Shown: piece after piece, positions 3 through 49,100 of the stretch
How the letters are laid out: every line of letters begins with the position of its first letter
Position numbering within the stretch: position 1 is the first letter of the stretch
Virus record (IMG/VR): IMGVR_UViG_3300032092_000009
Location: 46,869-110,868 of that record
Direction: 5' to 3' (one strand)
Length of the DNA stretch: 64,000 nucleotides
Origin: a virus
Taxonomy: Duplodnaviria > Caudoviricetes
Position numbers and translations under genes: made by a program
The notes under the pieces: model-generated
Told to the model about the DNA's origin: nothing
The model's database searches: none
Seen by the model: only the letters and a program-made list of their open reading frames with translations

Positions 3-3000
3 TACGGTAACTTTAATGGCACTTCAGTAGTAAATTCTATTCGTTTTGGTACCTCAACAAATAACTCGACTTTTTCTGGAGACGGTGCTTGGGGAATTAA
101 ATTGTATAATGATAATGGATATATACAATTTGGTCCTGCAAATACTAGTCATGCGCATATCTATACAGACAGAGCCAACTTCTATTTTAACAAAGACATT
201 CTAATAAATGGTAACTCAGTAATTACTACATCAACTATTGGTTCACAAACTGCAGGTTCAGTTACAGGATTGACTTTAACTAGTTCTGCAAATAATCTTA
301 ACCCAGATAACGTAACTCAGAATCAAATTGGATATAATACATCTGTAAGTCTATTTGGACAAACGGATGGGGGTCTTTATTCTTCTGCATATAGTTCTAG
401 TTGGATTCATCAGATTTATGGTGATTTTAGAAGTGGACAAATTGCAGTAAGGGGAAAAAATAATGGAACATGGCAATCTTGGAGAACCATCCTAGATAGC
501 GGTAACTACACAAGTTACTCTCCCTCCCTTACAGGCAGTGGGGCTAGTGGTACCTGGGGAATCAGCATTACTGGTAACTCTGCTTATGCTACAAATAGCA
601 CTAGGTTGTATGCTTCCGACTCTCCATATACTTATGGTGGAGCAGCACCTTACTATATGTATATGAACTACGATGGAGGTAGTTACTGGGAACTCAAAGT
701 TTCTCCTGCTACTCCAGGTGCTGTAAGAGTTGCTTACTCAAACAATTCTGGAGCTGTAGGTAATATTGATGTATCTCGAATTGTTTATGGAGATGGAGCA
801 AGAGGTAGATCTACAAGTAAGATAGGCGGAAATGCTAATACTTCTGATTCTTCAAATTCTTCTGGATTTTATTTTGGAAACGCTGTTGCAGGTATGCCTA
901 GTACAGACTGGTGGAATTGGTTAACTGTAGCAGGAAATTCTTGGTCAGGAGGAGACGGTTATGCTTATCAAATGGCTGGTTCTTTCTGGGGTGACGACTT
1001 CAGATTAAGACGTATGACTAGTGGGACTTGGAATTCTTGGTTAACAATTATTCATTCTGGAAATATAGGTTCTCAATCCGTAAACTATGCAACTACTGCA
1101 GGGGCACTTAGTTCGATGAACATTTCCCAGTTCAGTAATAATTCAGGCTATTTAACAGGAATAACGTCAGGACAAGTAACAGGAGCTTTAGGATATACTC
1201 CGTATAACTCTAGTAACCCTAATGGATATATAACCTCATCAGGAAGTATTAGTGGTAATGCAGCTACGGCTACAACTGCAAATGCTTTAACCAGTATGAA
1301 CATTTCTCAGTTTACTAATAACTCTGGATACCTTACTTCCCTTCCTTCACATAATCATGATGATAGATACTACACAGAATCAGAGATTGATTCTCAGATA
1401 AGTGGAAGACTATATCAAGCTTCTGTTAATACTTTTGACTTTAATGCTTTTAACGGAACTGGTTTATATAGAGGCTCAACAGGTAGTTGGAGTAATAGAC
1501 CACCTTCAGGACATAATGGAGGAGCTGTCTTACAGATAGACACCCATCCTGGAAACTACCACTCTCAATTGTATTTTGACACAGGGGCAGAGAGACTCTA
1601 CTTCCGAAATGCTAATGCAGGAACTTGGGGAAACTGGTTGACTGTACTTCATAGTAGTAACTTTAACTTATACTCTCCTAGCCTAACGGGAAGTAATGCT
1701 AGTGGAACATGGAATATCAATGTAACTGGAAGTGCAGGATCAGTAGCATGGACTAACGTAAGTTCTCGCCCTACTGCTTTATCTCAATTTACCAACGATC
1801 TAGGCAACCTATCTTCAACAGGTGGTACAATAACTGGTGACTTAAACCTACAGTATAGTTATCCTCGTATTAATTTTTATGATACAGACAATGACTCTGA
1901 TTACTCTTTAATTAATAATAATGGTAACTTTAGTCTTTACGACATTAATAACAACGTTCATCGTTTTGTAGTCTTAGCTGGGGGAAATGTAGGAATCAAT
2001 ACTACTAGTCCTGCTAACTTACTTACCGTTAACGGCAGTACAAGAATTGTTACTCATGCCCAGCAAGGTCTATTTGGCTATGATGATCCTACAGGAGGAT
2101 CTTTTATCTGGTCGATAACTAGATATACAGACGGAGATGGTAACGATTTAAATATTAATGCTTTAGCAGGTTTTGCAGTAAAAACAGGAGCTAGTTCTCT
2201 TACCAATAGTGGACACCAGTTTTATATAAACTCAAGTGGAAACGTAGGTATAGGAACCAGACTACCTGTAGGTCAATTAAATGTATTCGGTGGAACAGGT
2301 AATAACGCTGCTATCTTAACTCTTCAATCTCAGTCTGGAGGAAACGGTAACACGGGTATTTATTTTAGGCCTTATCAAAATGAAACTTTTGCTAATAGTG
2401 CAGAAGCCCAAGCAGCTATTTTGGCTCAAGATGCTAGTTACTCTGCACATATTAAATTCCTAACCAAGGTTCCTGGCTCAGGTACAAACTCTTTAACAGA
2501 GAGAATGCGTCTTACTAGTACAGGTAATCTTCTGATAGGTACTACTACAGATAACGGATTTAAGTTAACTGTAAGCGGAACTGCTAACATTACGAACAAT
2601 GTTAAGGTAGGATCAAATACTTTTGTTGTAGATACTGTAAACAATAGAGTTGGTATCGGAGGAAGTGCTACACCATCCTACACTCTTGAGGTATTAGGTA
2701 AAGGCTTTTTTAACGAACAAGTTATTATTGCAAATGGTGAGGGTCTTTCTCTCTTGAATAATAATGTTCAGATTAAACCACCTGTAATAAACTCACTAGG
2801 TTTCTATACTGGCACAAGTGGTGCTAATGAAAGGATGCGTATCACTCCTTCAGGTAATGTAGGAATTAATACAACAAGTCCAACTACTCTTTTAAATATT
2901 AAGGGTACCAGTACTACATCAGCTCTTGCTTCTTTTAAGGTAGAAAATTTTTCAGGAGATCCTGGAATTATTGTAAATGATGCAGGTAACTTGTTAGTAG

Positions 3001-3173
3001 GAACAGCTTCTGATTCAGGAAATAGATTAGAGGTAAATGGAACAGTTAATGCAACTGGATATAAACTTAATGGAGTAACAGGTTATACAGGAATGGTTAC
3101 TATACAACAAGCACCTCCGATGCCTCCTATAACTTTTGATATTCAGAATGGTATAATCATGAGCGTCACCTAA
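3..3173 (+). CDS. Tail fibre / receptor-binding protein, 5'-truncated
   Basis: Frame is open from base 3 (YGNFNGTSVV...), so the start lies upstream. G/S/T/N-rich; repeated W-x-x-W knob-like modules (GTWQSWRTILDSGN, GTWNSWLTIIHSGN, GTWGNWLTVLHSSN); ERMRI-x-x-GNVGI repeats. Confidence 0.85.
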   Translation, partial: YGNFNGTSVVNSIRFGTSTNNSTFSGDGAWGIKLYNDNGYIQFGPANTSHAHIYTDRANFYFNKDILINGNSVITTSTIGSQTAGSVTGLTLTSSANNLNPDNVTQNQIGYNTSVSLFGQTDGGLYSSAYSSSWIHQIYGDFRSGQIAVRGKNNGTWQSWRTILDSGNYTSYSPSLTGSGASGTWGISITGNSAYATNSTRLYASDSPYTYGGAAPYYMYMNYDGGSYWELKVSPATPGAVRVAYSNNSGAVGNIDVSRIVYGDGARGRSTSKIGGNANTSDSSNSSGFYFGNAVAGMPSTDWWNWLTVAGNSWSGGDGYAYQMAGSFWGDDFRLRRMTSGTWNSWLTIIHSGNIGSQSVNYATTAGALSSMNISQFSNNSGYLTGITSGQVTGALGYTPYNSSNPNGYITSSGSISGNAATATTANALTSMNISQFTNNSGYLTSLPSHNHDDRYYTESEIDSQISGRLYQASVNTFDFNAFNGTGLYRGSTGSWSNRPPSGHNGGAVLQIDTHPGNYHSQLYFDTGAERLYFRNANAGTWGNWLTVLHSSNFNLYSPSLTGSNASGTWNINVTGSAGSVAWTNVSSRPTALSQFTNDLGNLSSTGGTITGDLNLQYSYPRINFYDTDNDSDYSLINNNGNFSLYDINNNVHRFVVLAGGNVGINTTSPANLLTVNGSTRIVTHAQQGLFGYDDPTGGSFIWSITRYTDGDGNDLNINALAGFAVKTGASSLTNSGHQFYINSSGNVGIGTRLPVGQLNVFGGTGNNAAILTLQSQSGGNGNTGIYFRPYQNETFANSAEAQAAILAQDASYSAHIKFLTKVPGSGTNSLTERMRLTSTGNLLIGTTTDNGFKLTVSGTANITNNVKVGSNTFVVDTVNNRVGIGGSATPSYTLEVLGKGFFNEQVIIANGEGLSLLNNNVQIKPPVINSLGFYTGTSGANERMRITPSGNVGINTTSPTTLLNIKGTSTTSALASFKVENFSGDPGIIVNDAGNLLVGTASDSGNRLEVNGTVNATGYKLNGVTGYTGMVTIQQAPPMPPITFDIQNGIIMSVT

Positions 3174-3181
3174 GCTACTAC

Positions 3182-3211
3182 TTGACAAAATAACTAATAA
3201 CATTATATTTG
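3182..3211 (+). promoter_or_regulatory. Bacteroidota sigmaA-type promoter (TTGAC...TATATTTG)
   Basis: TTG at 3182, TATATTTG at 3204-3211, matching the -33/-7 consensus; precedes the 3248 ORF. Confidence 0.75.
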
Positions 3212-3247
3212 TAATGTATACAAAACTAAAATTATAATTTTACAACA

Positions 3248-3751
3248 ATGGCACTTAAAATCACAAAAAGCATTGGTACCGATAAAGGTATTACCAATGA
3301 GGCATACATCCGTATTGCCGACTACCAAATTTCTAAAACTGGTAACGCTAACTTCCGTATCCAGATTTACTTGAACGAAGCAGACGCTACTCCTAACGTT
3401 TCTATGGGTCCTTCAGGTGTTGAGCAAGCACGTAACCAACAAATTGGTGAGTACTTGTCTGTATCCTTGACTAAGCAAGTAGAAGAAGTTAAGACTCGTA
3501 CTATGATGCGTCCAGTTGAAGTAGATGTAGTTAAGACTCGCACTATCACCAACGAAGAGGGTGAAGAAGTAACCGAAGAATACACTGTAAAAGAATACGT
3601 GACTGAAGAAGTTACTGAAGAGTACACTGTTACAAACACAGTTCCTGATCTATCTTCCGCAGAAGGTGTTGACATTTTTGCATTTGGCTATAGCCACTTG
3701 AAAGCCAAACTTGTCAGTTTGTTTACTGCTGGTAAGGTAGAAGACTGTTAA
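3248..3751 (+). CDS. Tail-fibre-associated protein (possible assembly chaperone)
   Basis: 167 aa directly after the fibre gene; acidic EEYTV repeats. Confidence 0.5.
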   Translation: MALKITKSIGTDKGITNEAYIRIADYQISKTGNANFRIQIYLNEADATPNVSMGPSGVEQARNQQIGEYLSVSLTKQVEEVKTRTMMRPVEVDVVKTRTITNEEGEEVTEEYTVKEYVTEEVTEEYTVTNTVPDLSSAEGVDIFAFGYSHLKAKLVSLFTAGKVEDC

Positions 3752-4378: not shown

Positions 4379-4627
4379 ATGAAACTATTAAACTTTATTG
4401 GCGGACTCTTCAAAGATGAGAAGGGTGTTGTCTCCATGAAACGCTTGTGCGGATTAGTATGCACAGCTACACTATGCGCTACATTGTACGCTAACTCTTT
4501 TACTGAAGCTCACTTTGCTCCTTCTGTTCCTTTGGTGGATGCGGTTGCTTTGTTGGCTTTTGGTTGTCTAGGTTTGACTTCTGTTGAGAAAATCATGAAG
4601 AAGCCAGAAGCACCTAGCGAAGACTAA
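4379..4627 (+). CDS. Holin-like small membrane protein
   Basis: 82 aa, two hydrophobic segments, S-x-K-R motif before TM1, charged C-terminus, next to a peptidoglycan-enzyme gene. Confidence 0.55.
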   Translation: MKLLNFIGGLFKDEKGVVSMKRLCGLVCTATLCATLYANSFTEAHFAPSVPLVDAVALLAFGCLGLTSVEKIMKKPEAPSED

Positions 4628-4657
4628 TTTACTATAAACTATAAACTATAAACAACT

Positions 4658-5245
4658 ATGAGCTACACAAGAGAACAAATCGAAGCGGCTATGAAAGCCA
4701 AAGGTTATAAGTACTTTGAGAATGGAGATTTTAACGTAAACATTATTGGTGTACGTAACTCTTCTACTGGTACTAAAGTAACTAACGTATTTGACGATCA
4801 CTTAACTCTTTCTTACAAAGAAGGTGGTGAGTGGAAATTTAAAATCTGGCCTGCTACTACAGATCCAGGAACTAAGGGTGTTAAAGAATTCCATAACGCT
4901 GCAGGTGTTGCACGTTTGGTACCTGGTCAATACTCAGGTTCACACCATGTAGGATTGCACCAAGGTAAGTACGAAGCCCTTAAGCAAAAGGCTAACGTTA
5001 AAGTTTACCGTGATGCTAACAAAGACATGAACTATGACGAGTCCAAGATACAAGAAGGCATCTTCGGTATTAATATTCATAAAGCTGGTGCAGACTCTAC
5101 CTACGTTGAAAACTGGAGCGAAGGTTGCCAAGTGTTCAAGAAGTCTGCTGACTTTGATGCATTCATGGTTATCTGTAAGAAGGCTGCGGCATTGGGTGGT
5201 AACTCTTTCACTTATACTCTTATTGAATCTAAAGATATCAAGTAA
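4658..5245 (+). CDS. YkuD/L,D-transpeptidase-like peptidoglycan enzyme (endolysin candidate)
   Basis: GINIH-x11-WSEGCQV resembles the YkuD His...S-x-G-C catalytic motif; no signal peptide. Confidence 0.6.
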   Translation: MSYTREQIEAAMKAKGYKYFENGDFNVNIIGVRNSSTGTKVTNVFDDHLTLSYKEGGEWKFKIWPATTDPGTKGVKEFHNAAGVARLVPGQYSGSHHVGLHQGKYEALKQKANVKVYRDANKDMNYDESKIQEGIFGINIHKAGADSTYVENWSEGCQVFKKSADFDAFMVICKKAAALGGNSFTYTLIESKDIK

Positions 5246-5716
5246 ATGAAAGGACTTCTAGTAAGTCTTTTCCTAATTCTTTCTATCCCCTGTTCTTCTC
5301 AAATCAATGTGATGAAGGCAGGGGATGGTTGGGATTTAAAGGTAGACTCGGCCTTAGCATTAATTGCTCAAACTGATGTCAACGCTTATACTAGAGTAAT
5401 AGATGTCTGCCAAGTAATAGACTTCTGGATTAGCCCCTATTCCTCTAATACAATCTCCCAAGATGGTGGAACTATATTTATCGCTACAGGAGACATAAAA
5501 ACGAATTCACTCAATAACCTAGCTTGTGTTATTGTACATGAAAGTCTTCACTTATACTACTTGTTACATCCAGTAGAACAGTCACAGGACGAAGAAGAAC
5601 TTAAGTGTTATATCTACGAGTTAGACTTTATAAAAAAACTACCAACCCCAGAGCCTTGGTTACAGGCAAATGCAATTGAACAATTACATAAATTAACTAA
5701 AACAAAAACAAAATGA
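5246..5716 (+). CDS. Secreted zincin-like metallopeptidase
   Basis: Signal peptide ending CSS-Q; VHESLH (HExxH) plus downstream EEE. Confidence 0.65.
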   Translation: MKGLLVSLFLILSIPCSSQINVMKAGDGWDLKVDSALALIAQTDVNAYTRVIDVCQVIDFWISPYSSNTISQDGGTIFIATGDIKTNSLNNLACVIVHESLHLYYLLHPVEQSQDEEELKCYIYELDFIKKLPTPEPWLQANAIEQLHKLTKTKTK

Positions 5717-7611
5717 ATAAACTATTTAAAGTAATCATCGGGGTGTTGACATTGTTGGTTGGCAATGTATCAGCACAAAGTTCTGCTACCTCTCCAGGTA
5801 CAGGTCATTGGGTTGTAATCGACTCAGGTTATCAAGTAGCTACAAACACTGTAGGACAGACTGTAGCTCCTCTACACTTCTACAATACCTCTACTTCTGA
5901 AAAGATCACAGGTATGCAGTTCCGTGTATTCTACGATAAGACAGCTTTCACAGCAGTTGTTCCTTCTCTTAAGATTTCTTCTACTGATCAATACTTGCAG
6001 TATGTAGATAGTAACACACAAGGTTTCTTAACTGTTACATTGGCTTACACTGGATCTAGCTCAACATTTAACTACTCTAATGGAGCTACATTTGATCTTA
6101 CCTTCACACACGCAAGCGCAGCTGTATGGAACACATTGGATTCTATTAAGACTCTTAAGGTATCAGGTGTTAAATCATTCGCTAACAAAGCCGCTACTAA
6201 CTGGGGTAACGATACTACTTTAGTAGTTTACTCTTATGGTGGTCGCTTCAACCAGAAAGTATTAAGATTTGCTGCTAAGTTTAAAAACGTAACAGGTTCT
6301 GACGCTAAGAACTTGTGGGTGTCTTTGGAAAAGAAAGCTCCTTCAGGATCTTGGACTCAAGTAGAAGCTAAAGCAACTAACTCTAGTGGTGTTGTTGTAT
6401 TCCGTAAATTCTTGGATACTACTTACTGGGATGTACGTATGGTTGTTAAGGGAGATACTATGACCCCTGGTAACGTATTCTCTACTGCAGATGCACAGAA
6501 AATTAACCAGTCTATTCTAGGTCAATATGTTGCTTCAGGATTTGACTACTACACTATGGACGTAAACGGAACTGATGGAACTATTTCTATTGCTGATGTT
6601 TACTCTGTATACGGACGTTTGGCAGGTAGATTCTCTGCATGGCCTAATTCTAAGAAGGATGTAATGTTCTTTACAGTTGCTGAGTACAACTCAATTAATG
6701 GATCTGCTACTAACTTAACTTCTACTTACTCTACTATTAATAACTTTAACTACACAATTGACGGTAGAGATTCTATCACTTACTACGTAGCTGTTAAAGG
6801 TGATGCTAACTCTACAGGATTTAAGATGGCTCGTTTAACACCTATTAAGATTGTTAACCCAGCTAATGCTAAGCGTTACATCATTGACGAGACTGTAGAA
6901 TACGACTTCCCTGCAGAAACTATTGAGATCAACATGCCTAAAGTAACTGTAGACGAAGGTAACTTGGTTAACGTACCAGTTAAAGTACTGACTAACGGAA
7001 AGAACTTAGGTGCACTACAATTAGACTTGCGTTATGACACTGCTTACTTAGAGTTTAAGAAAGTAGAAAACACTGAGAAGATGATGAAGTGGACTTCTTA
7101 CTTGAACCCTTCTAATGGAATCATTTCTTGGGGAGCTGCTGACTTGACTAACGAGAACATGCTTAATGACGGAGAGCAAGTATTCACTCTTCAATTTATC
7201 GCTAAGAAGCCACAAGACTCTTGGGCTACTGCAGCTTTGTGGACAGGTGCTAAATACGTAGGAGACAAAAACTCTAAAGACATGAACATTACCCCTGCTA
7301 TGGGAGTAATTGAAGTACGTAGAATTAACAAGGGAGTTGTTTCACTTAATGACTTGAACTCTATTATTACTTTTCCTAACCCTACAGAAGGTCCAGTACA
7401 AATACAATTCAAGATCAAAGAAGACAGCGAAGTAGACGTAGCTATCTCTGATGAGGTGGGAAGACGTGTACAAACGATTTTAAGAGAAAGAATGCCTGCA
7501 GGTAAGTACAAGTATAATACAAACCTAGATCGTCTCCCTAATGGCTTCTATGTACTTTCTGTAACAACTCAAAAAGAAATCTTACACTCCAAAATAATCG
7601 TACAAAAATGA
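5713..7611 (+). CDS. Secreted cohesin / dockerin-like / cohesin protein with T9SS type-A C-terminal sorting domain
   Basis: Signal peptide VSA-Q; cohesin-like ITGMQFRVFYD and VNVPVKV..LGALQLDLRYD..LEF; Ca-loop DVNGTDGTISIAD; C-terminal FPNP...DEVGRRV...LPNGFYVL...KIIVQK. Confidence 0.8.
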   Translation: MNKLFKVIIGVLTLLVGNVSAQSSATSPGTGHWVVIDSGYQVATNTVGQTVAPLHFYNTSTSEKITGMQFRVFYDKTAFTAVVPSLKISSTDQYLQYVDSNTQGFLTVTLAYTGSSSTFNYSNGATFDLTFTHASAAVWNTLDSIKTLKVSGVKSFANKAATNWGNDTTLVVYSYGGRFNQKVLRFAAKFKNVTGSDAKNLWVSLEKKAPSGSWTQVEAKATNSSGVVVFRKFLDTTYWDVRMVVKGDTMTPGNVFSTADAQKINQSILGQYVASGFDYYTMDVNGTDGTISIADVYSVYGRLAGRFSAWPNSKKDVMFFTVAEYNSINGSATNLTSTYSTINNFNYTIDGRDSITYYVAVKGDANSTGFKMARLTPIKIVNPANAKRYIIDETVEYDFPAETIEINMPKVTVDEGNLVNVPVKVLTNGKNLGALQLDLRYDTAYLEFKKVENTEKMMKWTSYLNPSNGIISWGAADLTNENMLNDGEQVFTLQFIAKKPQDSWATAALWTGAKYVGDKNSKDMNITPAMGVIEVRRINKGVVSLNDLNSIITFPNPTEGPVQIQFKIKEDSEVDVAISDEVGRRVQTILRERMPAGKYKYNTNLDRLPNGFYVLSVTTQKEILHSKIIVQK

Positions 7612-7955
7612 ACATTAAAAAAGCACTTGGTTTTAGCCAAGCAGAACCAGTAGTAGTAGATCCTAAGAATAGGTTCTATTATATGCTACAACAAATGCAA
7701 GCCAATCGTTGGAAGATCACTGCTATCGTATTAGGTTTGTTCTTCTTTATTATCCTTGGTATTAACTCAGCTGTATTCTTCGGAGTAGAGATTGCGGAGA
7801 ACTGGAAAGAAATGTTGCTTATTCTTTTTGGAGCATTCGTAGGTAATTTGAACAAAGTAGTAGACTACTGGTTTAATTCTGAAGATCGAGATAAGATGCT
7901 AATACAGAAGGTGGATGAGGAAGATGGTGAATCATTGTCAAATAATAATCCATAA
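7608..7955 (+). CDS. Two-TM membrane protein
   Basis: Hydrophobic ITAIVLGLFFFIILGI and MLLILFGAFVG, then VVDYWFNS; ATGA overlap with the previous gene. Confidence 0.65.
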   Translation: MNIKKALGFSQAEPVVVDPKNRFYYMLQQMQANRWKITAIVLGLFFFIILGINSAVFFGVEIAENWKEMLLILFGAFVGNLNKVVDYWFNSEDRDKMLIQKVDEEDGESLSNNNP

Positions 7956-7959
7956 TAAT

Positions 7960-8283
7960 ATGTCAGAAGAACAAGAAGAAAGCGTAATGTCAGCTACTAA
8001 GAAAGCTATCATTGGCGCAGTCACCACTGCTGTAACTGCAGGAGGTGCATGGTTTGCCACTCACTTTGGTGGCGGTGAAGAACCTAAAGAAGAAGCTAAA
8101 ACAGAACAAGCACCCGCTGCTGCTCCTGTGATTAACTTGAATCTAGAGAACAACAACACTAACCAGCAGAAACAATCTTCAGGTGGAACTACTACTATCA
8201 TCAAAGAAAGAACAGTAGAAAAACCTGCAGCTCAATCTGCTCCTGCAACCAAACCACAAGCTGATGAGGAAGATCCTTGGTAA
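7960..8283 (+). CDS. Small membrane-anchored low-complexity protein
   Basis: ATG at 7960, just after the previous stop; KKAIIGAVTTAVTAGGAWF anchor, then P/A/N/Q-rich. Confidence 0.6.
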   Translation: MSEEQEESVMSATKKAIIGAVTTAVTAGGAWFATHFGGGEEPKEEAKTEQAPAAAPVINLNLENNNTNQQKQSSGGTTTIIKERTVEKPAAQSAPATKPQADEEDPW

Positions 8284-8971
8284 ATGGTTTAACAAGTTCA
8301 TGACTCTTGTAGTCTTGACCTTAGCAGGTTGTGGTTCTATGAAGACTACTACCGAAGAAGATAAAGTGGAGGTTAAAGACATCTCCACTGTATCTAATTA
8401 TAGTGATTCTATTAAAAAAACAGTACAAGTGGTAAGCGTAGATATGACCAAGGTACTTGCTCTTTATCCTGCTCTTCAGGAAAAGAACGTAGGTCTTGGA
8501 TTTGCAGAATCTGTTTTGGATTATTTGGATGAAACAAACAGATTTATATTTACGGAAGAAAAATCAGAGATCAAAGAAAGAATGGTCACTCAATTCAAAG
8601 CATCAAAGAAAGGCGTATTCGATGAGCCTATTGATGGCAAAGGTAAGATTAAGCCTGCTCACTACTTTGTGTATGTTACTGTGGCTGATTTTGCTGTTGA
8701 TGAAGACGAGCAAGTTGATGGCCTTAAGTCAAAAGTTGTTGTCACTACCTTCATTCGTTTACAAGTTCGCTTTGTGGACGCTAAAACAGGTCAGATCTAT
8801 ATTGGATCTGGCGAAGGAGAGTCGACTAAGACTGGTGAATCATTCTTAAAATCTTTAGATGATATGAAGTTCTCTCAAAGCACAGTAGGTAAAGCTACTC
8901 GTAAATCTTTGGAGACAGCTTGTACTAATGTGATTCAAAATCTCATTAAGTCAGGTGTATTTAAAAACTAA
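8264..8971 (+). CDS. CsgG/HfaB-family-like lipoprotein
   Basis: Lipobox LAGC; LDETNRFIFTEE and LQVRFVDAKTGQI..GSGEG segments typical of the CsgG/HfaB fold. Confidence 0.65.
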   Translation: MRKILGKWFNKFMTLVVLTLAGCGSMKTTTEEDKVEVKDISTVSNYSDSIKKTVQVVSVDMTKVLALYPALQEKNVGLGFAESVLDYLDETNRFIFTEEKSEIKERMVTQFKASKKGVFDEPIDGKGKIKPAHYFVYVTVADFAVDEDEQVDGLKSKVVVTTFIRLQVRFVDAKTGQIYIGSGEGESTKTGESFLKSLDDMKFSQSTVGKATRKSLETACTNVIQNLIKSGVFKN

Positions 8972-10430
8972 AATACTAATACTATTTATGATAGCTCTGT
9001 CTCTTCGGGGGCAGAGCTTTATTTATTCGTATACAGATCCGTGTACACAGGAGTTAAAGTTTATTAACGCAGACATGTCTAGTCCTATAGTGATTGCTTA
9101 CTACGGACAGGTTAAAACTTTCTCCTACACAGAGTTACAAGATGGTACGTTTGATAATTGGATAAATAGTGTATATTTGAAGTATCAAAGTACATCACCC
9201 TGTCAAGGAGTTGGAGTAACAACTACTACAACTACCACAACAAATACTACCCTAAACATTGTAAGCAATGTTATGAACCTAGGGGCTATTTCAAATGTTG
9301 GTAGTGTAAACGTAGACGTAGGCTCAAGTACCTCTTCAGGAACAAACATAGGAACAACAAAAACCAATAATAACAATGACAATCGAACTAGTTCTCGGAA
9401 TCGTACTAGCAGTAGCTCTAGTCGTTCTAATTCTTCTGGCAGCTCGTCAGGAGAAAATGGAAAATCAAATGATGGAGGAAACTCATCAGAAAATCAAAGT
9501 GGGTCTTCATCCAACTCCAACTCCAGTGGAGAAGGCAGCGGAGAAGGTAATGGAGGAAGCAGTAGCTCCAGCTCCAGTTCCAGTAGTAGTGGAGGAAACT
9601 CCAGTGGTAGTGGAACTAGTGGAAGTAGTAGTGGAAGCTCCCAAGGTGGAGGCGGAAGTGGTGGTAAAACCGAAGAAAAAACGGAAGTACAAACCGAGGA
9701 ACCCACAGAACAAAAAGTAGAAGAAACTAAAACTGAGACTCAAAAATCTCAGTCTACTGGTACTGCAAAAGCTGCAGGAAAAGCTAAAGCCGAAGTTGCT
9801 AAGCCTGCAATCTTAGTAACTGGTGATTTAGTTGGTATTCAGACTAAGTCTGATGGAGCACAAGATGCAAGAGGTACTGCCTCTTTTACTAGAGTAAAGG
9901 GAGACGGTACTTCTTCTCTTGGGTTTTCAGCTGACTACATGGTTAACGCTAGAATAGGAAATATCTCTTGCGTACGTTCCTGGATAGGAGCAAACAAAAA
10001 AGGACACAAACATATCAGTGTTGTATCTGATGGACTTAGCATAATGCCTAAGTCAATGTCAAACACTCTTCTATTTGTAAGAGTTAATTCAGTTAAAAAC
10101 TTTACAGCGCTCTACGGAGCAGCGGGAACCTACGGTAAACTATTTGGAGAAGAAATGATTTCTACCATTGCCATAGGAGGTTTTATGTACAAAGGTAAAC
10201 TTACTAAGAGTATAGACGCTACAGTTATTATGGCTGGTATCTATTCTCCTTATTCTAAGTATTACACAGAGTCTATATTTGAAGCTAAGCCTATTGTTAT
10301 TCCTTTCTTCAACTTTACATATAGAATGACCAAGACTTTTGGTTTAGGTATTACTGGAGGAGGAACATACGTAGCAGGACAGGATATATTGAACTTTCAA
10401 TTATTAATGGGAGCTAAGTTATTAATATGA
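8955..10430 (+). CDS. Secreted protein with Ser/Gly/Asn linker and putative C-terminal outer-membrane beta-barrel
   Basis: GTG start, signal peptide LRG-Q; N-domain with 2 Cys; low-complexity middle; about 200 C-terminal aa with alternating hydrophobic strands. Confidence 0.6.
   Translation: MYLKTKILILFMIALSLRGQSFIYSYTDPCTQELKFINADMSSPIVIAYYGQVKTFSYTELQDGTFDNWINSVYLKYQSTSPCQGVGVTTTTTTTTNTTLNIVSNVMNLGAISNVGSVNVDVGSSTSSGTNIGTTKTNNNNDNRTSSRNRTSSSSSRSNSSGSSSGENGKSNDGGNSSENQSGSSSNSNSSGEGSGEGNGGSSSSSSSSSSSGGNSSGSGTSGSSSGSSQGGGGSGGKTEEKTEVQTEEPTEQKVEETKTETQKSQSTGTAKAAGKAKAEVAKPAILVTGDLVGIQTKSDGAQDARGTASFTRVKGDGTSSLGFSADYMVNARIGNISCVRSWIGANKKGHKHISVVSDGLSIMPKSMSNTLLFVRVNSVKNFTALYGAAGTYGKLFGEEMISTIAIGGFMYKGKLTKSIDATVIMAGIYSPYSKYYTESIFEAKPIVIPFFNFTYRMTKTFGLGITGGGTYVAGQDILNFQLLMGAKLLI
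9376..9720 (+). CDS. Overprinted membrane protein in the +1 frame
   Basis: N-terminal TM (LVLGIVLAVALVVLILLAA), E/V/P-rich linker, basic tail KPKKKRKYKPR; A-rich AACCAA leader. Confidence 0.55.
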   Translation: MTIELVLGIVLAVALVVLILLAARQEKMENQMMEETHQKIKVGLHPTPTPVEKAAEKVMEEAVAPAPVPVVVEETPVVVELVEVVVEAPKVEAEVVVKPKKKRKYKPRNPQNKK

Positions 10431-11410
10431 GGTGGTTAGTTATTCTATTCTTTATTGTAAGCCCTCTAAGTGCACAATTTACTTATTCTGGATACTTGTA
10501 TAATGCAAATGGATCTGGGGCCAACAACGTAGCTATAAAACTGTATAGAAGAACTAACTCAACTATTACAGGCTTTACTAATCAGCAGAACTACAACGGG
10601 CACTCTTATTACCGTTCTACAGGAACTGCATTTTGGACTACAGCCAAGACTAACTGCTCTAATATGGGAGGGCACTTAGTAACTATTACAACTTCAGGAG
10701 AGCAAAGTTTTCTATATAATCTCTGGCCTTCTGGATGGATAGGACTAACAGATGAAGTAACAGAAGGTACTTGGAGATGGGTTACAGGGGAAAGTTATTC
10801 TTATTCTAACTGGAACTCTGGAGAACCTAATAATGCAGGTAACGAAGATTATGTTCAATTTGTATCTAATGGTAGGTGGAATGACTTACCTAATAACTAC
10901 GCACTTCCTTATGTACTAGAGTTTGAGTATTTAGTAACTACTTCTTCTTGGACACTCTACAAGACTATATATACTAACTCTTCGGGTTACTATTCTATTT
11001 CTGAGACTTACGATCCTTCTAAGGAATACTACATTGAGATAGATGCTCCTACCAGAATTCAATCTTATACAACTTCAGACATTCAAGGAGTATCTAATAT
11101 TATTCTCGGAAGGAGTGTAAGGAATGGTTTGTCTTTTCATATGTTTGATGTTAATGAAGACGGAGTAATTTCTATAGCAGATAAGTATTATGTAGCTGCG
11201 AGGAAAGCTGGTTTATTCTCTAGATGGAGAACAGCTCCTGATGTAAGGATCTTTACTACTGCTCAATACAATTCAATTAAAGCAGCAACAACAAACGTAA
11301 GAGCAACCTATCCTGGAGTTACTACTCATACTACAACTACCTTAACCTCAGGGGGAAGTTTAAACTTATATATAATAGCTCCTGGCTATGCTGGAGCAGT
11401 AACCTACTAA
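10427..11410 (+). CDS. Secreted C-type lectin with dockerin-like module
   Basis: Signal peptide LSA-Q; CTLD motifs GHSYY, GGHLVTI, WIGLTD, EG-x-W-x-W, EPN, WND; Ca-loop DVNEDGVISIAD. Confidence 0.85.
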   Translation: MRWLVILFFIVSPLSAQFTYSGYLYNANGSGANNVAIKLYRRTNSTITGFTNQQNYNGHSYYRSTGTAFWTTAKTNCSNMGGHLVTITTSGEQSFLYNLWPSGWIGLTDEVTEGTWRWVTGESYSYSNWNSGEPNNAGNEDYVQFVSNGRWNDLPNNYALPYVLEFEYLVTTSSWTLYKTIYTNSSGYYSISETYDPSKEYYIEIDAPTRIQSYTTSDIQGVSNIILGRSVRNGLSFHMFDVNEDGVISIADKYYVAARKAGLFSRWRTAPDVRIFTTAQYNSIKAATTNVRATYPGVTTHTTTTLTSGGSLNLYIIAPGYAGAVTY

Positions 11411-11412
11411 CT

Positions 11413-11859
11413 ATGAAAAAACTATTTATACTTTGCTTTCTAGTCACTATGATGACTTCTCTGAGTGCTCAATGCTATAAAGTTGACACTGTAACATCAA
11501 TTGCTTCTGTAACAGAAATAGGAGGAAGACCTATAATCTTTGGAGCACAAACAACTTTAGAAGAGATTGCAGCCTCAAAGTACCAACTATGTAATGAGGG
11601 CAGTCCTATTTCAGGAACAATCAAATCCATTGCTATGCCTGAAGAACTCTTAAATATCGTAGGGTTACAGTTTCTTAAGAGAGACTATATTGTAATCACT
11701 GAGATAAATCTAAATGGAGTAACTGTTCTTGGAGAGGCTAAAAAGACTGTCTATGTTAATGCTATGTTTGTTTCTGTAGAAGGTATTCCTCATAACAGAA
11801 AAGCTTATTCTAAGGCATTGGAGAAGTCTTTCAAGAATGGATTTGAGAATTTGAAATAG
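11413..11859 (+). CDS. Secreted hypothetical protein
   Basis: Signal peptide LSA-Q; two Cys in the mature part; last gene of the operon. Confidence 0.7.
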   Translation: MKKLFILCFLVTMMTSLSAQCYKVDTVTSIASVTEIGGRPIIFGAQTTLEEIAASKYQLCNEGSPISGTIKSIAMPEELLNIVGLQFLKRDYIVITEINLNGVTVLGEAKKTVYVNAMFVSVEGIPHNRKAYSKALEKSFKNGFENLK

Positions 11860-46129: not shown

Positions 46130-49100
46130 ATGGCAAAAATAATCTGCCCTACCAGGGAAAATAAAGACTTTTCAAACTTAAGCAATGCTCTTGGTAGTGA
46201 TGCCTTGGCTAGATATGTATGGTATAAGAATAGCAATCTTCCTTTAAACTTAACTGAGGATGCTGAAGGTAATATTGTTTCTAGTGAGATCTACGATAGA
46301 ATCTTAAACGAAGTTGCAGATGGTAATGAAAGTCTTGCTTTAGGGATTACTGCTATCATGCACTATCCTAGCTTCCAAGAGAAGTATGGAGAAGAAGACC
46401 CTGCTTTTACTGTAGACTACATTAAGCAAGAAGCACAAGATAAAGCAGATAAAGCAGCTAAGAGACAAGCACAACTTCTTGAAGAAAAGATTATTCCAGG
46501 CACCAAGACTCTTTATATTCAGTCTCCTGAAGGTGATGTTATCTATACTCAAGAAGAAGGAAAAGAAATTTTTGACAGTCTAGAGTACCTTGCCTCTACT
46601 AAGAAGAGTTGGAAAGCAGTATTAGATGCTTTAGCAGAAAGATTTACAGACATCCAAGCTAAAATTAAGAATAGTGCAGTTGATCCTGAGTCTAATGTTA
46701 CTCCACAAGAAATTGCCATTGCTAAAAACTTAGTTAATATTCTTAAGAACTGGCCCCAAGTAAAAGCTTGGTATCTTAGTCAGGATACAAACTTTGGCTT
46801 AGAGTTGACTGAAGACGAAGTTAATCCAGATACAGGAGGAAACGTCTACAATAAGAATGCACATGATCGTAGTCAGATGGATCTAGCATCTGCTCAAGTT
46901 ATTAAACTAGTACAGTCTCTTCCCAAATACAATAAACTTACTACACAGAATCGTAAGGATGTAAAGTCAGGAAAGAAAAGTATTACTGATTTCCAAGTTA
47001 TAAGTAACCTTACAGGTTTTCCTATTGTAGGAAACTTCTCTACTAACTGGAATGTACTTACTTCTAGTTTATCTGGAATTACTAAGTACGATAAGATTCT
47101 CGAAGAGTTGACAGTTGTTGCTCAAGAATATCCTCAGTTTAGAGATTTGGTTAACATGCTTCCAAAGGAAGATGTACAAGATGTTGACTTGAATACAGCA
47201 AACTTTGTAGCCTCATTTGTACAAACAGTATCTCTCCCTGAGATTGCTGCTTACCAATTATCTATAGGTAAAAAGAATGACGGTAAACAAACTAAGGTTG
47301 TTACTAAGACCTTTCAATTAGGTACTAGAACAGTTGACAACCTTATTAAGTATTTTGACGAAGACTACTTTAGGTCTAATCCTAAATATGGAATGCTTAA
47401 CGATGAGGGAAAGACTGTACTTAACATCCCTAAGATTCTAGAAGACTTTGCCAATATTAAAGACATTAGGGCATTTTTTGCTAATGAAGGAGATATAAAC
47501 TCTGCTGAAGGTATAAAATTACTGTACAATATCCATAAGTTTTATAATGCTTTAGGAGTTATACCTACTAACGCTCTTTATTTAAAAGACAAAAAAGCAC
47601 TATATGCCTTCTTGAAGGACAATACTTTTCATGTAAGAGAACTTTACGATAAGTTAGAGGCAAGTAAAGATAACAAAACAGTTACTCAACCTCTTCAGTT
47701 TTTGTCTCGTCCTCAAGGAAGTGGAAAAGCATTAGGTCCTAAGTTTGATATCATTAACTCTATCGTAGGATACTACGGTAAGTTTGAAAGAGAGTTTGCT
47801 TCTGGTTCTTACTTTAACCCTGAAGACAAACTACAATACAATCGTGTACAATACTTCTATCTAACTCAAGTAACTAATGCACTTAACAATGTAGCAAGTT
47901 ATAACGAGTTAATTGCTATGCCAGAGTTTGCTCACCTAGACGTAAGATTGAATCCTAATATATTAGGTTCTGTATGGCTAGAGAGGATGTTTGGTATCAG
48001 CATTAAAGGTAAGACACCTGGCCAACTAAAGAAGGACTTGGATGCGGGTAAGCAGTTTCCTAGACTTAAAACTAAGTTTAGTAAAGAACCATTTAAGATA
48101 AACATTGTAAACTACTCAGGTCTGAGTATTGATGCAGATGTTAAGGAGGGTATAACTACTACTGAGCTTACCTCAGAAGATAAGATTGTACAAGACTTTT
48201 TATCTTTCTTTGGTTCTGGTATAGTTGAGAACATTCGTTTTGGTGATAAAGGAACTTCTTATGCTACAGTTACCTCAGGTAAGGTAGAGGAAAGGATTTA
48301 CATTCCTCTTAACTCTGACGTACTTGGTATGATGGAGAAGCCTAGTTCTGTTATAGAACAGTCTTTGGTAGATCAGTTTAATGCTTATCTTACTTCAGAA
48401 GTCTTTCGTGTACTTGCCGTAAACAAAGAAACTAAGAAGAATACATACACTAAGAATGGCAGACAGTTATTCTTATTTAAAGATATCATCCCTAAGGAAG
48501 ACTACGATGCTTTGACAAGTGAAGACAGTAACGTAGTAAAAGAAGCTTATGCAAGAGTATCTAGTAATCTTCCAACCTACTTAGGTCAATACTTCACTAA
48601 ACAGACTCAAGAGTATAAGAAGCGTCTGATGGATTCTGTACTTGGAGACAACACTGCTATCAAGACAACTATTACCGAAGAACAGAAAGAAGAACAATTG
48701 GTAAACTCTTTATCTGCTTTGGGATTTGTAGATCCTGCTTTATTTAAAAAGAATCAACTTACTAAGCAAAACTTAGACTACGTTATTGCAAACTACCTTA
48801 AGAATGACTTTATCCATAAAGCAGAGTTCATGAAGGTATTTGTAGGAGACATTTCTAACTTCCAAGTTAAAGGTGACTTCCGTGAGGTATTCAAACGTAT
48901 TCCTCTTACATCTTCTCCTGGCTTTATCTTCCAAGATAATCCAGTAGTGATGTCTCACTTAAACAATAGTAGTGCAACTAACGGACTACATAAAGCGCTT
49001 ACAGGAGCTGCACAGAAGTTCCGTAAGACTGTAAGGACTGTTATCTTTAATGATGTCAACACATTCAGTAAAGAAGACTGGCCTACTTATAGAAATGCTT

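Follow-up and report, generated by a model that had tools for sequence, protein, structure and literature searches.

Can a long open frame inside a low-complexity stretch of another gene be a gene in its own right, or is it an accident of codon composition? The question is raised by a locus in a 64,000-nucleotide (nt) stretch of viral DNA (Duplodnaviria; Caudoviricetes), hereafter the window, which covers positions 46,869 to 110,868 of the 110.9-kilobase (kb) IMG/VR virus record IMGVR_UViG_3300032092_000009. A gene of 491 amino acids (aa), referred to below as the host gene because it accommodates another frame, occupies positions 8955-10430. Wholly within it and on the same strand lies an open reading frame (ORF) at 9376-9720 that is offset by 421 nt, i.e. 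in the +1 frame, and spans host residues 141-255, which form the low-complexity linker. An initial annotation of the window had proposed a genuine dual-coding region here. The features that it listed are all present: the 114-aa product with a hydrophobic helix of 19 residues, a Val/Glu/Pro/Ala stretch and a basic tail (ORF list and AlphaFold2), the near-exact coverage of the linker, the AACCAA at 9362-9367 in an A-rich leader, and the shifted reading by which Ser AGT and Gly GGT codons become Val. They are within chance expectation when the linker is resampled, and it is the evolution of the relatives and the existence of a stand-alone homologue that support the proposal. On this evidence, positions 9376-9720 within the linker of the 491-aa gene very probably constitute a genuine second gene that codes for a protein.

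Chance expectation and selection in the +1 frame

The linker is open in the +1 frame because a stop in that frame needs a host codon with T in the second position, which means a hydrophobic residue, and the first one met along the linker is the Val codon behind the TAG at 9718. Linker codons are read in the +1 frame as Val (Ser AGT, Gly GGT and Arg CGT), Leu (Ser TCT and Thr ACT) or Ile (Asn AAT), and the Glu and Lys codons as Lys or Asn. We compared the observed frame with a resampling null in which the host protein was fixed and synonymous codons were drawn from the phage's own usage (31 genes; 5000 draws). All draws (100%) left the +1 frame free of stops for 114 codons or more, 77% produced an ATG-initiated +1 ORF of at least 100 aa, and in 7.7% an ORF of this kind also had a hydrophobic 19-mer placed in the first 12 residues; the most hydrophobic 19-mer observed has a Kyte-Doolittle value of 3.34, compared with 2.54 expected (standard deviation 0.45; p = 0.047). 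A linker made of Ser, Gly, Asn, Glu and Lys yields the open frame, the hydrophobic run and the basic tail as by-products, which are therefore no proof of a gene. An open and seemingly coherent alternative frame is to be expected by chance in Ser/Gly linkers, and a real gene is separable from a by-product by comparative tests only.

A scan of viral contigs for relatives yielded 47 loci (given L numbers below), 38 of which were used; nine were dropped, either for an interrupted host frame (L023, L027, L028 and L042) or as short fragments (L029, L033, L038, L046 and L047). Together with the window and the Flavobacterium 'immuto' phages, which are the sole named relatives of the window phage (31.6% protein identity for the 491-aa gene), they form 40 rows with 36 distinct coding sequences. 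The host frame is open across the linker, whose length is variable, in 43 of the 47 viral loci and in all 12 metagenome loci listed. Clade A, composed of the window and 26 of the 38 loci, carries a +1 ORF of 98-118 aa with an ATG, the helix and the same tail throughout, and the ORF is likewise intact (108-113 aa) in 12 of 12 metagenome loci among the matches listed, so that the conservation for which the initial annotation proposed a check is found in all 26 close viral loci and in these metagenome loci. The other 12 loci (clades B-D) have distinct +1 ORFs of 41-102 aa, each with an ATG and a hydrophobic run: 51 aa in clade B, 41-42 aa in clade C (with a second ORF of 80 aa in three loci) and 92-102 aa in clade D. 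Hydrophobicity is preserved between clades that share little sequence, and the +2 frame is interrupted in every row, by 6-23 stops.

Rates of change were determined for each host-frame codon position (p1, p2 and p3) in 10 phylogenetically separate extant pairs from the four clades (six from A, one each from B and C, two from D). The flanking domains gave a p1 of 0.068, a p2 of 0.035 and a p3 of 0.260 (3039 codons), as compared with 0.148, 0.089 and 0.076, respectively, over the segment encoding the +1 helix (p3 from 18 of 236 codons; Fisher p = 2.3e-12 for the lower p3). Seven of these 18 differences stem from the pair L022/L035, in which the segment chosen automatically was a second hydrophobic run that is not conserved. 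Over the helix segment, the order p1 > p2 > p3 corresponds to third > first > second in the +1 frame. The pattern is clearest in two pairs: L044/L049 has a flank p3 of 0.518 and helix values of 0.519, 0.148 and 0.074 for p1, p2 and p3, and L014/L016 has a flank p3 of 0.43 and no third-position change in 23 helix codons. None of 249 flank windows of 25 codons reaches a pooled p3 of 0.076 or below, the lowest being 0.160. A map by segment was drawn from the six clade-A pairs (Table 1); clades B-D were covered by sliding windows and automatic segment picks.

Table 1 Change at host-frame codon positions along the locus in six clade-A pairs
Segment	p3	Changed/total codons	p value	Other positions
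Leader	0.282	20/71
N-terminal domain of the host protein	0.172	99/576
Helix and next four residues (+1 residues 1-27)	0.044	7/160	5e-8
Variable part 1	0.152	19/125
Acidic helix motif	0.097	9/93	0.008
Val/Glu/Pro/Ala spacer	0.348	48/138
Tail	0.044	5/114	4e-6	p1 0.079, p2 0.000
After the +1 stop	0.156	29/186
C-terminal domain of the host protein	0.209	258/1236

The suppression of p3 begins at the ATG, stops at the +1 stop codon and is concentrated in three segments, the helix, the acidic motif and the tail. The tail shows no second-position change in 285 opportunities, and changes that are host-nonsynonymous and +1-synonymous are more frequent there (0.0455; 7.5/165) than those that are host-synonymous and +1-nonsynonymous (0.018; 4/223). 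The ratio of +1-synonymous to +1-nonsynonymous changes at the host first position is 2.2 in the linker, which lies within the control range of 1.0-5.6. Host codons that are rarely used (CGG, TCG, ACG and CCC, at 1%, 2%, 3% and 5% of their families) do not vary among 18-20 taxa of clade A. Sliding windows reveal the same p3 dips in clades B, C and D, and the dip in clade C ends at the stop of the 41-42-aa ORF. Comparison shows that selection on the +1 protein acts over the predicted membrane helix, the short acidic helix and the polybasic tail; host-frame synonymous variation, which the initial annotation had proposed to examine for suppression, is suppressed exactly over these conserved parts. 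Judged by the pattern of change, the host frame and the +1 frame are both maintained by selection in the relatives.

Two further frames were noted. In clade B (L019/L031), a second hydrophobic +1 stretch follows the 51-aa ORF; it has no ATG, its host-synonymous rate is near zero and its non-synonymous rate is 0.035-0.064, and it is possibly a small ORF with another start codon. The codon-aligned antisense frame was considered and rejected because over the helix region it lacks a long ORF and because it accounts less well for the periodicity.

A stand-alone homologue and the competing explanations

The search for stand-alone homologues suggested in the initial annotation gave one. In L050, a viral record of 81.5 kb, positions 2930-3217 hold a separate 95-aa gene that is 43% identical to the embedded product over its full length and has no larger overlying ORF: the frame equivalent to the host gene is broken by 10 stops, and the 491-aa protein has no match in the whole L050 record, which is 69% complete. 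DNA homology with the embedded copies begins some 15 nt ahead of the ATG and ends at the stop; the L050 copy uses that same ATG, has a leader resembling theirs and lacks the upstream domain. The ratio of non-synonymous to synonymous substitution rates in the +1 frame, L050 against embedded copies, is 0.41-0.52. The 19-residue tail is identical in L050 despite seven nucleotide differences, every one of which is at a +1 third position and synonymous. The codon usage of the L050 copy is normal: its score of 0.20 falls within the range of real genes, which have a mean of 0.33 (standard deviation 0.11).

A search with the 114-aa protein returned 25 database proteins, mostly from short contigs and named 'hypothetical' or spurious, four of which are divergent forms of 95-99 aa. 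Further variants are P0022-25 and P0026-27; no viral locus was found for P0026 and P0027, and alignment-based and metagenome scans for further stand-alone DNA gave embedded forms only, among the matches listed.

How the two forms are related can be approached through trees. Immuto, in which the linker is present without the ORF, serves as the outgroup that roots the host-gene tree, and all four ingroup clades have embedded forms, with L016 and L014 basal in clade A. In the small-protein tree the stand-alone forms stand beside L004/L024 (support 66-93) and share the clade-A tail. These positions fit a birth in the linker followed by escape, without proving it. That the small protein was born de novo by overprinting in the Ser/Gly linker, later escaped as a free-standing gene, shed the constraint of the host frame and gained normal codon usage is a plausible history, although we lean slightly against it. 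If true, this would be one of the rare cases in which the birth of a gene in a disordered linker, and its subsequent liberation, can be traced. The embedded and stand-alone copies together offer a natural experiment on the constraints that overlap places on two proteins.

It is very improbable that the +1 ORF is a compositional by-product, i.e. a shifted reading of the Ser/Gly/Asn/Glu/Lys linker that is never translated and has no function. Resampling, in which an open frame, an ORF of the required length and a hydrophobic run all arise without selection, speaks for it, as do the four of six frames that are open over part of the linker, the poor +1 codon usage and the lack of the ORF in immuto. 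A by-product would, however, leave unexplained a three- to five-fold drop in host-synonymous change that is limited to three +1 segments, has +1 periodicity and occurs in four clades; it is also opposed by the invariance of rare host codons, by a stand-alone homologue that is intact at a place where 10 stops break the host frame and by the fact that every tail difference is +1-synonymous. We give equally little credence to a nucleotide-level element (an RNA structure, an internal regulatory site or a recoding signal) that conserves the sequence instead of the protein. Conserved elements of this type do exist in the gene, namely the hairpin at ~8990-9020 and the promoter-like site at 9150-9179 described below, and 20 taxa share an unchanged block of about 30 nt in the tail that includes an A-run with a rare codon after it. 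The three-base periodicity is nonetheless that of a protein-coding frame, the first host position of L044/L049 changing at the neutral rate of 0.519 and the third at 0.074; hydrophobicity is preserved across clades with little common sequence, the stand-alone gene alters seven third positions of the tail with the protein unchanged, and such an element has no need of an ATG in a gene-like start context.

The +1 frame might also be reached by ribosomal frameshifting, which would fuse the N-terminal domain to the membrane helix and basic tail and so yield a membrane-anchored isoform of an exported protein. A-runs are indeed located just before the ATG and in the tail, but clade A has a +1 stop eight codons ahead of the ATG, no clade has lost this ATG, whose start context is strong, and the stand-alone homologue begins at that ATG without any upstream domain; frameshifting is exceedingly improbable. 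A frameshift site at the A-run of the tail was rejected in view of the stand-alone ATG and the +1-synonymous tail changes.

A separately initiated small protein encoded in the +1 frame of a dual-coding linker is the reading that we prefer, and several observations weigh against it. Stops in the +1 frame of homologues, or a missing ATG, had been named in advance as evidence to the contrary; the ATG is found in all four clades, but the distant relative immuto has three +1 stops in its linker and no hydrophobic run. The codon-usage scores of the overlap in the window are poor in both frames (-0.10 for the host frame and -0.22 for the +1 frame) and resemble those of shifted frames, and which frame is the older can therefore not be read from codon usage. 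The 401-nt region folds at -107.8 kcal/mol, compared with -88.9 for shuffled sequences (z = -3.4; 0 of 100 as good), so that an RNA-level constraint may add to the signal. The pairs were chosen from the tree and recombination could weaken their independence, and the mid-linker alignment is uncertain owing to low complexity. The family of the small protein is tiny: a 15-member profile retrieved seven clusters among 1.84 billion representatives. It has no match in Pfam, NCBIfam or PDB sequences, nor, in its stand-alone form, in PHROGs, and no holin or spanin family was hit. A metatranscriptome run (X15) contains exact read-length contigs over 9365-9515 and over two other parts of the window, for which DNA carry-over is a possible source; it is the only run with exact pieces among the RNA and RNA-labelled runs, and the parts that it does not cover carry no meaning. 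Finally, the topology of the product and its role in lysis, to which we turn next, are matters of inference only.

Expression, predicted product and possible function

On a start-site weight matrix derived from 39 gene starts in the window, the ATG at 9376 reaches a score of 8.89, above the median of 6.6 for true starts, and none of 585 out-of-frame internal ATGs scores as high. Its leader consists of A at 70% of positions -20 to -1, including A at -3, -6 and -13, which are positive determinants of starts in Flavobacterium johnsoniae in the account of PMC6847099. The same account provides the -33/-7 promoter consensus of Bacteroidota, with eight matches in the window against 2.9 expected. One of these matches lies at 9150-9179 in the region coding for the N-terminal domain, within 9153-9206, which is the only other zone of near-zero p3; every clade-A relative has it unchanged, and clades B-D and immuto lack it. 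This match may be an internal promoter for the embedded gene. Ribosomes would start at the ATG at 9376 on the A-rich, Shine-Dalgarno-free leader, as is usual in Bacteroidota, and the template would be either the mRNA of the host gene or a transcript initiated at the promoter-like site. The features of the locus are compiled in Table 2.

Table 2 Coordinates of the features in the window (all on the + strand)
Feature	Position	Strand	Basis
Host gene, 491 aa, GTG start	8955..10430	+	ORF list
Candidate internal promoter, 197 nt upstream of the embedded ATG	9150..9179	+	Match to the Bacteroidota -33/-7 consensus only
A-rich leader without Shine-Dalgarno sequence, before the embedded start	9351..9375	+	Start-context scoring; p3 not suppressed
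Embedded +1 gene, 114 aa plus stop, ATG start; small single-pass membrane protein (predicted)	9376..9720	+	Selection, conservation, homologues
Membrane helix coding part, +1 residues 5-23 (19-residue hydrophobic run)	9388..9444	+	Hydrophobicity, low p3, AlphaFold2 helix with confidence score (pLDDT) >90
Conserved short acidic helix motif, +1 residues 51-66	9526..9573	+	Low p3, invariant columns in embedded and stand-alone members, AlphaFold2 helix 50-62
Variable Val/Glu/Pro/Ala spacer, +1 residues 67-95	9574..9660	+	Unconstrained p3, disordered in the model, gapped in L050 and P0022-24
Polybasic tail, +1 residues 96-114	9661..9717	+	Low p3, invariant block in alignments

An AlphaFold2 model of the 114-aa protein, built on 17 family members, predicts a helix at residues 3-44 (pLDDT 91-97 over the first 30 residues), a second at 50-62 and disorder at 63-96. 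In the small protein, the acidic helix motif and the tail are invariant, as are a Gly within the membrane helix and an Arg that follows this helix; Cys and lipobox are both absent and the membrane helix is at the very start. The ESM Atlas offered no family assignment (best feature score 0.81), and a PspB-like shape (template modelling score, TM-score, 0.63) was discarded as too generic to use.

The N-terminal helix would anchor the product in the cytoplasmic membrane. Because the positive charges come after the helix, the most likely topology would place the N-terminus outside and the C-terminus inside, with the tail in the cytoplasm. The strictly conserved polybasic tail would be the working end that binds an anionic partner, either lipid head groups or nucleic acid; binding of nucleic acid or lipid by a cytoplasmic polybasic tail is possible, and the initial annotation had offered a membrane tether for nucleic acid as one of its two suggestions. 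The Val/Glu/Pro/Ala stretch, missing in the stand-alone form, would be a mere spacer and dispensable. The job of the small protein is probably independent of the host protein, since the gene survives in a record without a match to the 491-aa protein and is situated in both phages in a variable island just after holin-like and endolysin-like genes. A membrane-acting accessory of the late or lysis programme is our best guess for its role, a tentative one on which doubt prevails.

Holins are small phage membrane proteins with a charged C-terminal tail. The 114-aa protein resembles them in its small size, its one membrane helix, its very basic C-terminus and its location a few genes past holin-like and endolysin-like genes, but it differs in matching no holin family in Pfam, PHROGs, NCBIfam or PDB sequences. 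Anchors of the TonB/TolA type, considered here as a lead only, have an N-terminal membrane helix followed by a Glu/Pro-Lys/Pro spacer. The 114-aa protein likewise has an N-terminal anchor and then an acidic and a basic Pro-containing spacer, whereas a C-terminal domain and a Pfam match are lacking, the spacer is dispensable and the charges suggest the opposite topology.

Embedded genes are a known class in phages, and the gene at 9376 is a new case that matches no described family. The closest comparison is with embedded two-component spanin genes, including lambda Rz/Rz1 (Kongari et al. 2018; PMC6139136). Common to both, as far as that account goes, are a gene nested in the +1 frame of a phage gene near the lysis genes, two products that are envelope proteins, and an inner gene missed by gene callers, which in the spanin account failed to identify 196 o-spanins. 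The differences concern both partners. The 114-aa product has an N-terminal membrane helix only and neither a lipoprotein signal nor the lipobox Cys of an Rz1-type protein, and the outer gene is not an i-spanin; it has a signal-peptide-like N-terminus, a low-complexity linker and a predicted 12-strand barrel-like domain. The overlap is in a disordered low-complexity linker, and a homologue occurs here as a separate gene, whereas no spanin family in the account of Kongari et al. mixes embedded and separated architectures. In viral overprinted genes more broadly, as outlined in the review of Pavesi (2021; PMC8227390) and in work on Sabath-type selection methods (PMC4316641), two frames of one stretch are likewise under selection and are detected via suppressed synonymous change in the known frame. 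Relative to what these sources outline, the present case differs in that the overlapped part of the older-looking gene is disordered and the embedded product has an ordered membrane helix, and in that the composition of the host frame is by itself sufficient to leave the second frame open and to make it hydrophobic at first and basic further on. Literature searches, which were non-exhaustive and did not cover supplements, found no paper describing this gene pair.

A low-complexity linker that is usually dismissed as filler can thus hide a real gene that is skipped by every gene caller. Clean genetics are feasible because host-synonymous changes can knock out the inner gene. Little is known of the lysis and envelope functions of freshwater Bacteroidota phages, and the small protein would be an addition, so far unrecognised, to the membrane proteins of their lysis-adjacent island.

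The host gene and the swapped island

L050 is syntenic with the window, sharing an 82-aa protein, an endolysin-like gene (phrog_33083) and four downstream genes, all of them 73-88% identical between the two. The 82-aa protein, encoded directly before the endolysin-like gene, has two hydrophobic segments by reading of its sequence and is a better holin candidate than the 114-aa protein. Between the endolysin-like gene and the conserved downstream genes an island is swapped between the relatives (window 4379-11859, L050 445-3217). In the window it is an envelope module of ~6.8 kb composed of a metalloprotease-like protein (by reading), a scaffold with a cohesin and a tail of the type IX secretion system (T9SS), a lipoprotein, the 491-aa gene and a C-type lectin; in L050 it contains two DUF2589 genes and two small genes, with small membrane proteins among its products. 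The small membrane protein is the sole gene common to both islands. The initial annotation had considered it a possible inner-membrane component of the surface module, a suggestion that loses ground here: the stand-alone copy does not co-occur with the module, and because it sits in a related phage record without a match to the 491-aa gene (in a record that is 69% complete), an obligate role in the surface module is less likely.

The 491-aa protein comprises an N-terminus that reads as a signal peptide, a conserved N-terminal domain, the Ser/Gly/Asn-rich linker of ~115 residues and a conserved C-terminal domain. The C-terminal 221 aa are predicted to form 12 beta-strands (pLDDT 69; one of five models good), and in a Foldseek search with this model the PDB matches were outer-membrane barrels only, with NanC as the best (E = 3e-4, TM-score about 0.4). 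The small N-terminal domain, Ser/Gly linker and 12-strand barrel give the protein an autotransporter-like appearance, and the NalP translocator domain is among the Foldseek matches of this low-confidence model.

Two observations concern the upstream part of the host gene. A hairpin of -18.6 kcal/mol followed by a T-run is located at ~8990-9020, in the part coding for the putative signal peptide and just past the stop of the upstream lipoprotein gene. Its stem varies in a compensatory manner across clades A-D and immuto, and the hairpin is weak in L016. Within the coding region it could act as a terminator or an attenuator, or it could influence RNA stability. In L023 a 213-aa ORF with a NUMOD3 motif (3085-3726; E = 5e-10) is placed between the lipoprotein gene and the 491-aa gene, and it looks like a homing-endonuclease insertion.

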